4,387 nt of DNA from a virus (taxonomy: Duplodnaviria; Heunggongvirae; Uroviricota; Caudoviricetes), in the IMG/VR virus record IMGVR_UViG_2698536307_000013. One strand, given 5' to 3'. This document shows positions 1 to 4,387 of the stretch, piece by piece. Numbering within the stretch: position 1 is the first letter of the stretch; each line of letters begins with the position of its first letter. The position numbers and the translations under genes were made by a program. The notes below the pieces were generated by a model. The model was not told the DNA's origin and made no database searches. It worked only from the letters and a program-made list of their open reading frames with translations.

Positions 1-27
1 TGCACGATAGAGCAGGTGGTGAACTGA
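1..27 (+). CDS. M: 3' terminal fragment (last 8 codons plus TGA stop) of an upstream copy of tail tip protein M; 5' end lies outside the window
   Basis: Bases 1-27 encode CTIEQVVN-stop and are identical to the 3' end of the complete M gene at 913-939. The same ATGA-style 1-nt overlap with the following ATG at 27 is present. Confidence 0.5.
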   Translation, partial: CTIEQVVN

Positions 28-526
28 TGCAGGATATTCACGAAGAAAGCCTGAACGAGTCGGTTAAGTCAGAGCAGTCACCGCGTGTGGTACTCTGGGA
101 AATCGACCTGACGGTGCAGGGCGGTGAGCGCTATTTTTTCTGCAATGAACTGAATGAAAAAGGGGAGCCGGTCACCTGGCAGGGGCGGCAATATCAGGCG
201 TACCCGATTGACGGCAGCGGCTTTGAGATGAACGGGAAGGGCAGCAGTGCCAGACCGTCGCTGACGGTGTCCAATCTGTTTGGCCTTGTCACCGGAATGG
301 CGGAGGACCTGCAGAGCCTGGTGGGGGCCACGGTGGTCCGCCGCCGGGTGTATGCCCGTTTTCTGGATGCGGTGAATTTTGTGGCGGGCAATCCGGAAGC
401 GGACCCGGAGCAGGAGCTGAGCGACCGCTGGGTGGTGGAGCAGATGTCAGAGCTGACGGCCATGACAGCCTCGTTTGTGCTGGCAACACCGACGGAGACG
501 GACGGAGCGCTGTTTCCCGGTCGCAT
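1..526 (+). repeat. Copy A of a diverged direct repeat (M 3' end plus L 5' ~500 bp); offset 912 bp to copy B
   Basis: Direct comparison of 1-526 with 913-1438 shows about 15 single-base differences (hand-counted), all at codon third positions. The window begins inside the repeat, so it may extend upstream. Confidence 0.85.
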
Positions 527-605
527 ACTTGTGCAGCTGATTGACCAGCGGGTGCAGGCGGTGATGCTGTCCATGCGACGTGACGGAGGAATGCTGAGTG
601 GCTGA
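27..605 (+). CDS. Truncated, chimeric tail tip assembly protein L-like ORF (192 aa): L residues 1-167 fused to an unrelated 25-aa C-terminal tail (LVQLIDQRVQAVMLSMRRDGGMLSG), possibly the 3' end of a tape-measure (H-like) gene; probably a pseudogene or remnant
   Basis: The first 167 aa are identical to the full L at 939-1637. Identity ends near nt 524-527, after which the ORF runs in a different sequence context and stops at 603-605, overlapping the M start. It lacks the Cys-rich C-terminus of L. Confidence 0.6.
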   Translation: MQDIHEESLNESVKSEQSPRVVLWEIDLTVQGGERYFFCNELNEKGEPVTWQGRQYQAYPIDGSGFEMNGKGSSARPSLTVSNLFGLVTGMAEDLQSLVGATVVRRRVYARFLDAVNFVAGNPEADPEQELSDRWVVEQMSELTAMTASFVLATPTETDGALFPGRILVQLIDQRVQAVMLSMRRDGGMLSG

Positions 606-939
606 GATAAAAACGCTGCATCTGGTCCCGCGTGAAGGGATGCAGGTGAGTGAGAAGCCGTCGGTGGTGAGGGTGCGGTTTGGTGACGGTTATGAACAGC
701 GCCGCCCCACAGGGCTGAATCCTCAACTGAAGACGTTTCAGGCGGTGTTCCGGGTGACGGATGAGTCAACCCGGCGCTGGCTGGAAGAGTTTTTATCGTG
801 GCATGGTGGTTACCGTGCCTTTTTGTGGCGACCGCCGAAACATAACCGGACGGTGAGGGTTGTGTGCCGTGAGTGGAGTGTCACGGATAATGCCCGGTAC
901 AGTGATTTCAGTTGCACGATAGAGCAGGTGGTGAACTGA
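598..939 (+). CDS. M: Tail tip protein M (lambda gpM homolog), 113 aa
   Basis: The protein aligns with lambda gpM as recalled: a shared RFGDGY motif and an identical EQVVN C-terminus. GTG start at 598 sits 7 nt after a GGAGGA Shine-Dalgarno (585-590). Stop TGA 937-939 overlaps the L ATG by 1 nt. Confidence 0.88.
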   Translation: MAEIKTLHLVPREGMQVSEKPSVVRVRFGDGYEQRRPTGLNPQLKTFQAVFRVTDESTRRWLEEFLSWHGGYRAFLWRPPKHNRTVRVVCREWSVTDNARYSDFSCTIEQVVN

Positions 940-1438
940 TGCAGGATATTCACGAAGAAAGTCTGAACGAGTCGGTTAAATCAGAGCAGTCACCGCGGGT
1001 GGTGCTCTGGGAAATTGACCTGACGGTGCAGGGCGGTGAGCGGTATTTTTTCTGTAATGAGCTGAATGAAAAAGGGGAGCCGGTCACCTGGCAGGGGCGG
1101 CAATATCAGGCATACCCGATTGACGGCAGCGGTTTTGAGATGAACGGGAAGGGCAGCAGTGCCAGACCGTCGCTGACGGTGTCCAATCTGTTTGGTCTGG
1201 TCACCGGGATGGCGGAGGACCTGCAGAGCCTGGTGGGGGCCACGGTGGTCCGCCGCCGGGTGTATGCCCGTTTTCTGGATGCGGTGAATTTTGTGGCGGG
1301 CAATCCGGAAGCGGACCCGGAGCAGGAGCTGAGCGACCGCTGGGTGGTGGAGCAGATGTCAGAGCTGACGGCCATGACAGCCTCGTTTGTGCTGGCAACA
1401 CCGACGGAGACGGACGGAGCGCTGTTTCCCGGTCGTAT
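913..1438 (+). repeat. Copy B of the diverged direct repeat (within the intact M 3' end and L 5' region)
   Basis: Matches 1-526 at an offset of 912 bp; see copy A. Confidence 0.85.
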
Positions 1439-1637
1439 CATGCTGGCGAACACCTGTATGTGGACCTACCGCTCTGATGAGTGTGGTTACACGGGCGGGG
1501 CTGTGGCGGATGAGTTCGATAAACCCACCACGGATATCCGTAAGGACAGATGCAGCAAGTGCATGCGCGGGTGTGAGATGCGCGGCATGGTGGCTAATTT
1601 TGGCGGTTTCCTTTCCATCAATAAACTTTCGCAGTAA
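939..1637 (+). CDS. L: Tail tip assembly protein L (lambda gpL homolog), 232 aa, with a C-terminal cysteine cluster
   Basis: Strong similarity to lambda gpL as recalled (VVLWEIDLT, GGERYFFCNE, VTWQGRQYQ, FGGFLSINKLSQ C-terminus). The 699-nt length matches lambda L. ATG at 939 follows an AGGTGG Shine-Dalgarno (926-931). The track's 912 start is an upstream extension into M and is not used. Confidence 0.93.
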   Translation: MQDIHEESLNESVKSEQSPRVVLWEIDLTVQGGERYFFCNELNEKGEPVTWQGRQYQAYPIDGSGFEMNGKGSSARPSLTVSNLFGLVTGMAEDLQSLVGATVVRRRVYARFLDAVNFVAGNPEADPEQELSDRWVVEQMSELTAMTASFVLATPTETDGALFPGRIMLANTCMWTYRSDECGYTGGAVADEFDKPTTDIRKDRCSKCMRGCEMRGMVANFGGFLSINKLSQ

Positions 1638-1647
1638 ATCCTGTTTT

Positions 1648-2391
1648 ATGACACAGACTGAATCAGCGATTCTGGCGCATGCCCGGCGGTGTGCGCCTGC
1701 GGAGTCGTGCGGCTTCGTGGTGAGAACGCCGGAGGGGGAGCGGTATATCCCTTGTGTGAATATCTCTGCAGAGCCGGAGGCGTATTTTCGTATTGCACCG
1801 GAAGACTGGCTGCGGGCAGAGATGCAGGGGGAGATTGTGGCACTGGTCCACAGTCATCCCGGTGGTCTGCCCTGGCTGAGCGAGGCCGACCGGCGGCTGC
1901 AGATAAAAAGTGCACTGTCCTGGTGGCTGGTCTGCCGGGGGGACATTCATAAATTCCGCTGTGTGCCGCACCTGACGGGACGGCGCTTTGCGCACGGGGT
2001 GACGGACTGTTACACGCTGTTCCGGGATGCCTACCATCTGGCGGGAATTGATATGCCGGATTTTGAGCGTGAGGATGACTGGTGGCGCAACGGCCAGAAC
2101 CTGTACCTGGACAATATGGCGGTCACCGGCTTTTACCGGGTGCCCCTGTCCTCTGCACAGGCGGGCGATATTCTGCTGTGCTGCTTTGGCGCATCGGTGG
2201 CCAATCATGCCGCCATATACTGCGGCAACGGTGAACTGCTTCACCATCTGCCAGAACAACTGAGTAAACGGGAGAGGTATTCTGAAAAATGGCAACGACG
2301 AACGCATTCTGTCTGGCGTCACCGCCACTGGCACGCATCTGCCTTCACGGGGATTTGCAACGATTTGGCCGCCGCCTCAGCCTGTACGTGA
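1648..2391 (+). CDS. K: Tail tip assembly protein K (lambda gpK homolog), 247 aa: N-terminal JAB/MPN (JAMM) metalloprotease-like domain plus C-terminal NlpC/P60 cysteine peptidase-like domain
   Basis: JAMM motif HSHPGGLPWLSEAD (H68-x-H70-x7-S78-x2-D81) with candidate upstream Glu (E19). NlpC/P60-like Cys in GVTDCYTLF (C121) and His in NHAAIY (H187). ATG at 1648 lies 11 nt after the L stop. The track ORF starting at 1387 overlaps L and is rejected. The start is somewhat uncertain; the next in-frame ATG is at 1822. Confidence 0.88.
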   Translation: MTQTESAILAHARRCAPAESCGFVVRTPEGERYIPCVNISAEPEAYFRIAPEDWLRAEMQGEIVALVHSHPGGLPWLSEADRRLQIKSALSWWLVCRGDIHKFRCVPHLTGRRFAHGVTDCYTLFRDAYHLAGIDMPDFEREDDWWRNGQNLYLDNMAVTGFYRVPLSSAQAGDILLCCFGASVANHAAIYCGNGELLHHLPEQLSKRERYSEKWQRRTHSVWRHRHWHASAFTGICNDLAAASACT

Positions 2392-2969
2392 ACACGGCAG
2401 CGGAAGCCATCCGTGCCCTGTCGATGCAGATGCCGGGCTTTCGCCGTCAGATGAACGAAGGCTGGTACCAGATACGTATTCGCGGTGAGGACACGGCACC
2501 GGAGGCGGTGTACGCCCGTCTTCACGAACCTCTGGGTGAGGGGGCGGTCATCCATATTGTGCCGCGACTGGTCGGAGCCGGAAAGGGCGGACTGCAGATT
2601 GTGCTGGGGGCGGCGGCCATCGTGGGGTCGTTCTTCACGGCCGGGGCATCAATGGCGTTATGGGGTTCAGCCCTGGCAGCCGGTGGTTTTTCTGCCACCA
2701 CGATGCTGTTTTCACTGGGGGCTAGCATGATACTGGGCGGTGTGGCCCAGATGCTGGCACCGAAGGCAAAAACACCGGATTACCGCGCAACGGATAACGG
2801 TAAACAGAACACGTATTTTTCCTCACTGGACAATATGATTGCCCAGGGTAACCCGATGCCGGTGCCTTATGGTGAAATGCTGGTTGGTTCACGACGGATA
2901 TCCCAGGACATCAGTACCCGTGATGAAGGCGGTGGCGGAAAGGTTGTGGTTATCGGGCGGCAGGGGTAA
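2289..2969 (+). CDS. I: Tail tip assembly protein I (lambda gpI homolog), 226 aa; N-terminal ubiquitin-like region and a Gly/Ala-rich hydrophobic central segment
   Basis: Similarity to lambda gpI as recalled (ARICL.GDLQRFGRR, AVIHIVPR, KQNTYFSSLDNM.AQGN, VVVIGR). GGGAGAGG Shine-Dalgarno at 2270-2277. Overlaps the K 3' end by 103 nt in a different frame, as in lambda. Confidence 0.9.
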   Translation: MATTNAFCLASPPLARICLHGDLQRFGRRLSLYVNTAAEAIRALSMQMPGFRRQMNEGWYQIRIRGEDTAPEAVYARLHEPLGEGAVIHIVPRLVGAGKGGLQIVLGAAAIVGSFFTAGASMALWGSALAAGGFSATTMLFSLGASMILGGVAQMLAPKAKTPDYRATDNGKQNTYFSSLDNMIAQGNPMPVPYGEMLVGSRRISQDISTRDEGGGGKVVVIGRQG

Positions 2970-2984
2970 AAAGAATAAAACAAT

Positions 2985-3000
2985 CCCGCAGAGTTGCGGG
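2985..3000. other. Short GC-rich hairpin (CCCGCA-GAGT-TGCGGG) 16 nt after the I stop; possible RNA 3' stability element, or a terminator on the minus strand where it is followed by a T-rich run
   Basis: Perfect 6-bp inverted repeat with a 4-nt loop. On the + strand no T-tract follows. The reverse complement is followed by ATTGTTTTATTCTTTTT. Confidence 0.3.
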
Positions 3001-3032
3001 GACAGACAAAGATTAACGTTAAGGAGTTATTT

Positions 3033-3137
3033 TTGTTTCTGGTGCTCGGGCAAAAAAACATTAACGCAGAGAAATTATTAGCACCACAGTCAGTTTGTGA
3101 AAATGTGAAGATATTCAGAAGTTTTATTCCGTCATGA
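3033..3137 (+). CDS. Hypothetical 34-aa mini-ORF (MFLVLGQKNINAEKLLAPQSVCENVKIFRSFIPS) in the I-J spacer; speculative
   Basis: Consensus Shine-Dalgarno AAGGAG (3021-3026) lies 6 nt upstream of TTG at 3033. The ORF stops at TGA 3135-3137, immediately before an intrinsic terminator. The segment is AT-rich compared with its flanks. No homology is recognised. Confidence 0.15.
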   Translation: MFLVLGQKNINAEKLLAPQSVCENVKIFRSFIPS

Positions 3138-3139
3138 TG

Positions 3140-3169
3140 CAGGCATCCTCCGGGATGCCTGTTGTTTTT
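3140..3169 (+). terminator. Rho-independent (intrinsic) terminator-like hairpin with T-tract in the I-J intergenic region
   Basis: Stem CAGGCATCC (3140-3148) pairs with GGATGCCTG (3153-3161) around loop TCCG, followed by TTGTTTTT (3162-3169). Perfect 9-bp GC-rich stem. Confidence 0.6.
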
Positions 3170-3203
3170 GTGCGTAACAGTTATCACAGTAAAGGGTGAG
3201 ACA

Positions 3204-4387
3204 ATGGGCAAAGGTGGCGGCAAGGCGCACACACCGCGCGAGGCGAAGGACAATCTCAAATCCACGCAGATGATGAGTGTGATTGATGCGATTGGTGAGG
3301 GACCGATAGAAGGCCCGGTGAAGGGGCTGCAGAGTATCCTGGTGAACAAAACCCCGCTGACGGACACGGACGGCAATCCTGTGATACACGGTGTGACCGC
3401 GGTCTGGCGCGCCGGGGAGCAGGAGCAGACACCACCGGAAGGCTTTGAGTCCTCCGGAGCTGAAACCGGACTGGGCGTGGAAGTGACGAAGGCAAAGCCG
3501 GTAACGCGCACCATTACGTCCGCGAACATTGACCGCCTGCGGGTTACCTTCGGGGTGCAGTCACTGGTGGAGACCACCTCAAAGGGTGACCGTAACCCGA
3601 CGTCTGTCCGCCTGCTGATTCAGCTTGAGCGTGGTGGTAAATGGATGACGGAAAAGGATGTCACCATTAACGGCAAGACCACCTCACAGTACCTGGCGTC
3701 GGTGATTCTGGATAATCTGCCTCCCCGTCCTTTTAACATCCGGATGGTCCGGGAGACAGCGGACAGCACCACGGACCAGTTGCAGAATAAGACGCTCTGG
3801 TCGTCATACACCGAAATCATCGATGTGAAACAGTGCTACCCGAACACGGCGATTGTGGGGCTGCAGGTGGATGCGGAGCAGTTTGGCGGTCAGCAGATGA
3901 CGGTGAACTACCATATCCGCGGTCGCATCATCCAGGTACCGTCAAACTATGACCCGGAAAAACGCACTTACAGCGGCATCTGGGACGGCAGCCTGAAACC
4001 GGCATACAGCAACAACCCTGCCTGGTGCCTGTGGGACATGCTGACTCACCCGCGCTACGGCATGGGAAAACGTCTGGGGGCGGCGGATGTGGACAAGTGG
4101 GCGCTGTATGCCATCGGGCAGTACTGCGACCAGATGGTGCCGGATGGCTTCGGGGGCACCGAGCCGCGGATGACCTTCAATGCGTACCTGGCACAACAGC
4201 GTAAGGCGTGGGATGTTCTCAGTGATTTCTGCTCGGCGATGCGCTGTATGCCGGTATGGAACGGTCAGACGCTGACGTTCGTTCAGGACCGCCCGTCGGA
4301 TGTGGTGTGGCCGTACACCAACAGCGATGTGGTGGTGGATGATAACGGCGTGGGGTTTCGCTACAGCTTCAGCGCCCTGAAGGACCG
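3204..4387 (+). CDS. J: Host specificity / central tail fiber protein J (lambda gpJ homolog), N-terminal 394 codons; 3' end lies beyond the window
   Basis: Open frame from ATG 3204 to the window end with no stop. The N-terminus MGKGGGKAHTPREAKDNLKSTQ and long stretches (TTSKGDRNP, NKTLWSSYTEIIDVKQCYPNTA, AWCLWDMLTHPRYGMGKRLGAADVDKWALY, FCSAMRCMPVWNGQTLTFVQDRPSD) match lambda gpJ as recalled. Shine-Dalgarno-like AAGGGTGAG precedes the ATG. Confidence 0.93.
   Translation, partial: MGKGGGKAHTPREAKDNLKSTQMMSVIDAIGEGPIEGPVKGLQSILVNKTPLTDTDGNPVIHGVTAVWRAGEQEQTPPEGFESSGAETGLGVEVTKAKPVTRTITSANIDRLRVTFGVQSLVETTSKGDRNPTSVRLLIQLERGGKWMTEKDVTINGKTTSQYLASVILDNLPPRPFNIRMVRETADSTTDQLQNKTLWSSYTEIIDVKQCYPNTAIVGLQVDAEQFGGQQMTVNYHIRGRIIQVPSNYDPEKRTYSGIWDGSLKPAYSNNPAWCLWDMLTHPRYGMGKRLGAADVDKWALYAIGQYCDQMVPDGFGGTEPRMTFNAYLAQQRKAWDVLSDFCSAMRCMPVWNGQTLTFVQDRPSDVVWPYTNSDVVVDDNGVGFRYSFSALKD

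Follow-up and report, generated by a model that had tools for sequence, protein, structure and literature searches.

The window, as we call the whole stretch of DNA analysed here, comprises 4,387 nucleotides and covers the tail-tip region of a lambdoid prophage, as indicated by Pfam matches and annotated relatives. Its genes form an H-M-L-K-I-J cluster that, by Pfam matches, lambda gene order and overlapping starts and stops, represents a lambda-like tail tip module. The features along the window are the following.

1-26, plus strand: 3′ end of gene M (last 26 nt), with its stop overlapping the L start; identical to 913-938.
27-526, plus strand: 'X-type' allele of the minor tail gene L, 5′ part, reaching the second base of codon 167 after 166 full codons; matched by Pfam PF05100 over profile positions 3-142 of 206.
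297-523, plus strand: shared block R2, identical to 1209-1435; found in at least 10 distinct L alleles of the population.
527-527, plus strand: joint base 'A', an orphan that matches no scanned L or H allele.
528-605, plus strand: 3′ end of H, the tape-measure gene, comprising its final 25 codons and the stop; annotated tape-measure genes match at 100% from exactly 528 onward.
528-961, plus strand: shared block R1, made up of the H end, M and the first 23 nt of L; several prophage lineages carry it unchanged, with a polymorphic site on either side (527 and 962).
598-939, plus strand: gene M for the distal tail protein, whose GTG start overlaps the stop of H; Pfam PF05939 over its full length, and annotated relatives.
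939-1637, plus strand: complete gene L, 'Y-type' allele, 232 aa, with Cys173, Cys182, Cys205 and Cys212; Pfam PF05100, profile positions 3-206 of 206.
1648-2391, plus strand: gene K (JAB/MPN and NlpC/P60); Pfam PF14464 and PF00877.
2289-2969, plus strand: gene I, tail assembly/insertion protein, 226 aa from ATG 2289; Pfam PF06805 and the open reading frame list.
2970-3203: I-J spacer, 235 nt.
3204-4387, plus strand: gene J, of which the contig end leaves only the 5′ part; Pfam PF24801 and PF13550.

The Pfam families of M, L, K, I and J in the window agree with those of the lambda series gpH/gpM/gpL/gpK/gpI/gpJ. The H end aligns to lambda gpH residues about 826-850, and its stop occupies 603-605, in register with L001. 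The complete L is colinear with lambda gpL at 77% identity and retains all four Fe-S cysteines. In lambda gpL, the HDI domain spans residues 1-166, and the protein also has a C-terminal Fe-S domain (PMC10721106). In contrast, the first L copy of the window ends at residue 167, where the HDI domain ends, and lacks the Fe-S domain. With this truncation, copy 1 in its present form is not a functional L gene.

Several further features lie downstream of the repeat. Gene I probably starts at ATG 2289 (226 aa) and would share 103 nt with K, an overlap also seen in lambda (gpI, 223 aa), and RefSeq relatives annotate it from GTG 2388 (193 aa), with the first 25 positions of the Pfam profile missing. 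The I-J spacer at 2970-3203 carries a terminator-like hairpin at 3139-3162 on the plus strand, together with a hairpin at 3000-2985 and a promoter-like site at 3101-3074 on the minus strand. Related prophages hold a minus-strand sodC moron at this place, or spacers of other lengths; in the window the place is empty, and the spacer resembles those of many prophages at 70-93%. An open reading frame of 236 aa on the minus strand (2867-3577) runs antisense to the spacer and the start of J. It appears in the public gene calls of two sibling contigs (L210 and L225) as a 220-aa call without a Pfam hit and is probably a spurious call. An Rfam scan of the window returned no hits.

The window contains a repeat of period 912, in which positions 1-526 recur at 913-1438, and at face value it contains a partial tandem duplication H′-M-L′ of 912 bp. 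An earlier note, written from the sequence and a hand count, had placed about 13 differences between codons 8 and 97 of the two L copies and two more just before the junction, had described all of them as third-position changes that leave 167 residues identical, and had found roughly 200 bp in between (about 297-521) unchanged. We compared the copies exactly and without gaps at offset 912 (1-526 versus 913-1438). The count of 13 stands, at sites 50, 68, 86, 92, 104, 131, 143, 149, 200, 221, 284, 287 and 296, and the range is narrower than stated, covering codons 8-90. The two additional differences were located at 524 (codon 166) and 527 (codon 167), of which the latter is probably not an L base at all, but rather the joint base. 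The identical stretch runs slightly further than described, over 297-523 (227 nt), and homology stops at 528. As the note had it, all 15 differences fall at third codon positions and are synonymous, the 167 encoded residues are the same, and the alignment reveals an uneven spread with no nonsynonymous change.

Both properties are difficult to obtain by chance. The 15 differences comprise 11 transitions and 4 transversions, and random hits of this composition would all be synonymous with a probability of ~1e-8. If the 13 differences were spread uniformly, the interval 297-523 would remain free of them with a probability of ~4e-4. The silence of all 15 changes and the clean interval therefore constitute a real pattern and not one of neutral decay.

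To place this pattern against natural variation, we drew on a sample of 64 distinct L alleles, among which 82% of codon differences are synonymous. Allele pairs separated by 10-20 differences (n=317) include 14 without any amino-acid change and 42 with an identical run of at least 227 nt, and silent-only differences are thus unremarkable among natural L alleles. The interval 297-523 was considered as a mutational cold spot, an idea rejected on the 48 polymorphic sites that it holds across the 64 alleles. The exact 297-523 block is common to at least 10 different L alleles, and its identity between the copies reflects shared ancestry, a mosaicism inherited from the population.

Each of the two copies can be matched to an allele with an existence of its own. 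Copy 2 shows 0 mismatches to the allele of sibling contig L004 over the repeat register 913-1439. Copy 1 differs at 2 positions from the intact L genes of L002 and L084, and at 13-15 from the Y allele; its best hits, NZ_CP148357.1 and NZ_CP148374.1, are closed E. coli genomes in which the prophage is intact, and L084 is an IMG/VR contig. At 14 of the 15 variant sites, copy 1 has the state of an allele that occurs singly in intact prophages (L002, L003, L084). Both copies are consequently distinct alleles that are each present singly in unduplicated H-M-L-K-I-J clusters, as in a false duplication. These matches bear out the view of the earlier note that two functional alleles of related lambdoid prophages are represented here, and not an in-place duplicate that has decayed.

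The patchiness of the differences also has a counterpart outside the window. When X-type (L084) and Y-type (L004) alleles are compared in their own unduplicated genomes, the H end, M and the first 23 nt of L are identical, and 15 differences follow in L 50-296. X-type (L084, L002) and Y-type (L004) alleles of separate genomes are then identical over 297-523 and diverge strongly from 524 on. Since the same patchiness is found between alleles of separate unduplicated genomes, no gene conversion inside the locus is needed, and the 'patchy gene conversion' invoked in the earlier note becomes superfluous. The identical tract is not restricted to linked copies, as it would be after conversion within the locus. 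Homologous places number up to 12 in single genomes, and as many as 3 prophages of one closed genome encode the same M protein.

The position at which X/Y divergence restarts, L codons 165-168 (window 1430-1445), coincides with the HDI/Fe-S domain boundary of lambda gpL. A widespread 208/209-aa L variant of E. coli and E. albertii (P0093, P0119 and many 208-aa clusters) has a frame change at the same codons, and this seam appears to be a recurrent breakpoint in L.

The junction lies between the first L copy and the H end. The joint reads ...GGTCGCAT-A-CTTGTGCAG..., the surrounding region 500-560 includes ...GGTCGCATACTTGTGCAG..., and the stretch 515-540 contains CGCATACTTG. It is contiguous, without N over 520-535, and in frame, such that L residues 1-167 are fused to the last 25 residues of H, with the breakpoint at the gpL HDI/Fe-S domain boundary. 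The base at 527 does not fit either side: position 527 of L is C or T in 85 of 85 L genes scanned, and the base before CTTG is T or C in 46 of 46 sampled H-gene segments, never A in either set. With L reading ...CGCAT(T/C) and H reading ...GGCAG(T/C)|CTTG, the sequence CGCAT-A-CTTG is unreachable without an untemplated base. Illegitimate recombination leaves a joint that derives from the parental sequences, usually with microhomology; the joint of the window does not so derive, and no microhomology was found between its sides.

Searches for the joint with exact and degenerate patterns came back empty from 5,426 closed E. coli genomes, 50,697 phage records, GTDB species representatives, IMG/VR and JGI metagenomes. 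The 192-aa fusion open reading frame is not on record by exact look-up, and none of its 552 homologues is an L-H fusion. The joint was thus not reproduced in the independent assemblies and close relatives searched, whereas that of a genuine duplication would be.

The edges of the segments coincide with allelic variation. Polymorphic positions among the alleles include H 527 (T/C), L 527 (C/T) and the equivalent of 912, the base before the window start (T/C/G). Polymorphic sites make up 13% of the region, and the contig start as well as both sides of the joint adjoin such sites, with a chance expectation of ~0.017 for the two joint sides alone. L046, L062 and L096 differ up to 527 and are identical over 528-961. 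The segments accordingly end where co-resident repeats diverge, a property of false duplications. The in-frame fusion and its placement at a domain boundary would follow from contig breaks at third-position SNPs and at an allele/mosaic seam.

Sibling draft contigs provide a direct view of the alternatives at this locus, and copy 2 with its downstream sequence matches them at 99.9%. IMGVR_UViG_2690316227_000010 (= CYEV01000136.1) has 4 differences from window 528-4387 (3,860 nt), and its upstream sequence runs normally into H with no duplication. Those 4 differences, at window 2253, 2283, 2310 and 2312, lie within 60 nt in the K/I overlap, and such clustering suggests a small patch of recombination, or a consensus of mixed alleles, rather than mutations scattered along the sequence.

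A second sibling, CYCT01000156.1 (L210), is 99.92% identical over 528-4387 and shares both the start base and the 3′ end of the window; the identical first base places the window start at a contig edge. The L fragment on its left agrees with copy 1 throughout 1-379, extends to 629, which is 103 nt beyond the fragment of the window, and is joined to TCTTGTGCAG of the H end via a literal N. Sibling strains thus combine the same right end with two left ends, in one case with an N in between, which fits scaffolding and not one recombination event; of all the evidence for an artefact, this is the strongest. To the base, the 3′ end of the window is also the end of the sibling contigs CYEV01000136.1 and CYCT01000156.1 (also listed as L101/L225 and L210), and it follows that the window behaves as a complete draft contig. 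The window end lies in a J segment found in at least 120 IMG/VR contigs.

Comparable structures occur in other draft E. coli contigs of this gene cluster. Among unrelated contigs, L205 holds an allelic second copy of gene I with a single-N joint at 4750, and L207 has single-N joints at 3130 and 3559 with L duplicates flanking; L208 contains an exact 213-nt tandem at its contig end (663-1088). Such cases suggest that these artefacts are common around multi-copy prophage tail genes. Where the window has one orphan base at 527, the equivalent joint of CYCT01000156.1 and the joints of L205 and L207 are single Ns. In a different assembly, L209 (GCA_040424915.1 ABTFHN010000161.1) is 100% identical to window 1165-4387; this contig begins within L and extends beyond the window end in J. 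Assembled differently, this lineage hence has its break inside the L 5′ region, which is expected if the genome holds more than one L allele.

Overall, we consider it highly probable, on the strength of these sequence comparisons, that the duplication is a scaffolding or gap-filling artefact that put together pieces of two co-resident lambdoid prophages. Direct observations are the identities of the alleles, a mosaic pattern that they already had, segment boundaries that coincide with polymorphic sites, an N at the joint of the sibling, and no second instance of the joint in the collections searched; the course of events can be reconstructed around them. The source would be a short-read draft assembly of an Escherichia strain with at least two lambdoid prophages that carry near-identical tail genes. 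The main contig, 528-4387, would represent the 'Y' prophage from the H end through M, L, K and I to the J start; the 434 nt at its head (528-961) would match the other prophage exactly and behave as a collapsed repeat. A small separate contig, 1-526, would carry the 5′ two-thirds of L from the other prophage (the 'X' allele), with both its start and its end where the co-resident alleles diverge. The second co-resident prophage is most likely the source of 27-526, and the M end at 1-26 belongs to the same left fragment.

Read pairs of the X prophage that reach from its own M into its own L may have linked the small contig to the collapsed block. The scaffolder would then have abutted the two contigs with a minimal gap, missing their status as alternative alleles. 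Some scaffolders may emit one N where the estimated gap is zero or negative. The one-base gap at 527 would finally have become 'A', presumably because it was filled or because an N was converted. A de Bruijn path error was considered and set aside, because the sides of the joint share no k-mer, which places the error at the scaffolding or gap-closing stage. The silent differences confined to the 5′ part would, on the scaffolding account, be the ordinary variation of two L alleles, both functional and each maintained by purifying selection in its own phage; the mosaic block 297-523 is already common to both alleles in the population. Assembly errors are documented in which gaps, or gaps filled wrongly, split false duplications (PMC9516828, Ko et al. 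2022), and in bacterial pipelines false joins are known to arise from greedy scaffolding together with gap filling (PMC5320598, Page et al. 2016).

The apparent duplication is therefore most likely not a real feature. The earlier note had named a chimeric assembly of two co-resident prophages as its fallback, and the sibling contigs and the features of the joint make this the best-supported reading. Its preferred version, two alleles joined by recombination, is not supported at the joint itself, which bears the signature of a scaffold gap in its orphan base, the N joint of the sibling and the polymorphic boundaries.

A real partial tandem duplication was our first working model and is the most probable of the alternatives. 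Here, an X-type and a Y-type phage or prophage would have recombined illegitimately, without homology, so as to join X L codon 167 to H codon -25, beside the Y M-L-K-I-J. The outcome would be an in-frame fusion, L(1-167)::H(C-terminal 25 aa), with a second and complete M-L set downstream of it. The contiguous sequence without N, the clearly different alleles of the two copies, and an in-frame fusion that ends at the natural H stop overlapping the M start all speak for such an event, as do the break at the gpL HDI/Fe-S boundary (lambda residues 1-166; PMC10721106) and the real tandem duplications known in J of closed genomes. The lack of an N, the in-frame reading and the J tandems also count against an artefact. 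The coincidences of reading frame and domain boundary would be automatic if the breaks fall at third-position SNPs and a mosaic seam. The joint is present in none of the collections searched, the nearest sibling lacks it, and a second sibling carries another left end before the same right end, with an N in between. The orphan base, the missing microhomology and the two breakpoints adjoining polymorphic sites weigh in the same direction. We dropped this model on the sibling N joint with its other left end and on the coincidence of boundaries with polymorphism, and now regard it as improbable. Still less probable, by our reading of the sequence, is the specific claim that the joint is real and that an illegitimate exchange of two co-resident lambdoid prophages fused a complete gpL HDI domain (1-167) in frame to the C-terminal tip-lumen helix segment of the tape measure, upstream of a second, intact M-L set.

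An in-place tandem duplication within one prophage, followed by conversion of the 5′ 300 bp of the upstream copy and of site 524 from another prophage, is very improbable. Recombination is common among co-resident lambdoid prophages, with up to 12 homologous places per genome, and the identical 297-523 would be the unconverted part; yet X and Y are already identical over that interval in unduplicated genomes. Site 524 lies beyond the identical block and is X-type, which would require a second conversion tract. This scenario also needs the same unsupported L|H joint as the illegitimate recombinant, and the siblings count against it, given that CYEV01000136.1 has no duplication and CYCT01000156.1 has an N joint.

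An in-place duplication followed by independent mutational divergence of the redundant copy is favoured by nothing beyond the repeat itself and has next to no probability, refuted as it is by the synonymous-only test (15 of 15 changes, P ~1e-8 under random hits) and by the allele states (copy 1 has, at 14 of 15 sites, that of a pre-existing allele from unrelated genomes), and at odds with the contrast between 15 differences in 527 nt inside the repeat and 4 sites in 3,860 nt outside it relative to the sibling contig.

If the scaffolding account holds, the present value of the locus is cautionary. Scaffolders can set an allelic fragment of one prophage before that of another in multi-prophage drafts, and the by-products of such artefacts are apparent partial duplications, truncated genes and in-frame fusion open reading frames. 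A finding that all differences are synonymous is, in this setting, a sign of two functional paralogous alleles and not of selection on a duplicate. Three flags separate the artefact from a genuine rearrangement: one N or one orphan base where the segments meet, breakpoints adjoining polymorphic sites, and siblings whose left ends vary while the right end stays constant. A genuine duplication would add a fresh case of domain-level shuffling among prophages; and if the joint were real and the fusion expressed with the late genes, the product could be a dominant-negative poison of tail-tip assembly, acting on its own prophage or on competing lambdoid phages.

The window finds its closest parallel among assembly errors in the false 'heterotype' duplications (PMC9516828), in which diverged versions of one locus stand side by side and each copy has its own variant k-mers, as seen here. 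The gap or unsupported filled gap that separates the copies in that class may correspond to the orphan base of the window. It differs from that class in that the versions are paralogous alleles of two prophages in one bacterial chromosome, not diploid haplotypes, and in that the putative gap is a single base reading 'A', not N. A genuine repeat in the same tail cluster offers a useful contrast. The 599-nt J repeat of closed O157:H7 genomes is likewise a direct repeat of several hundred bases, and its joint is contiguous in several of these genomes, with copies 96.5-99.7% identical, whereas the L|H joint of the window is found in none. This J tandem lies at 4224-5422 in L172 and at 3048-4245 in L179, with a window-equivalent start at about 4115, and in the closed O157:H7 genomes H181-H184, J is annotated as two fragments. 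Finally, the mosaic lambdoid (Stx-type) prophages of E. coli have the same H-M-L-K-I-J order as the window, with several copies of the tail genes per genome. Their tail alleles are 92-99% identical, with mostly silent differences and with exact blocks alternating with diverged patches. The variant pattern of the window is an ordinary instance of this and shows no difference from it, and nothing at the locus departs from the known biology of mosaic lambdoid prophages.
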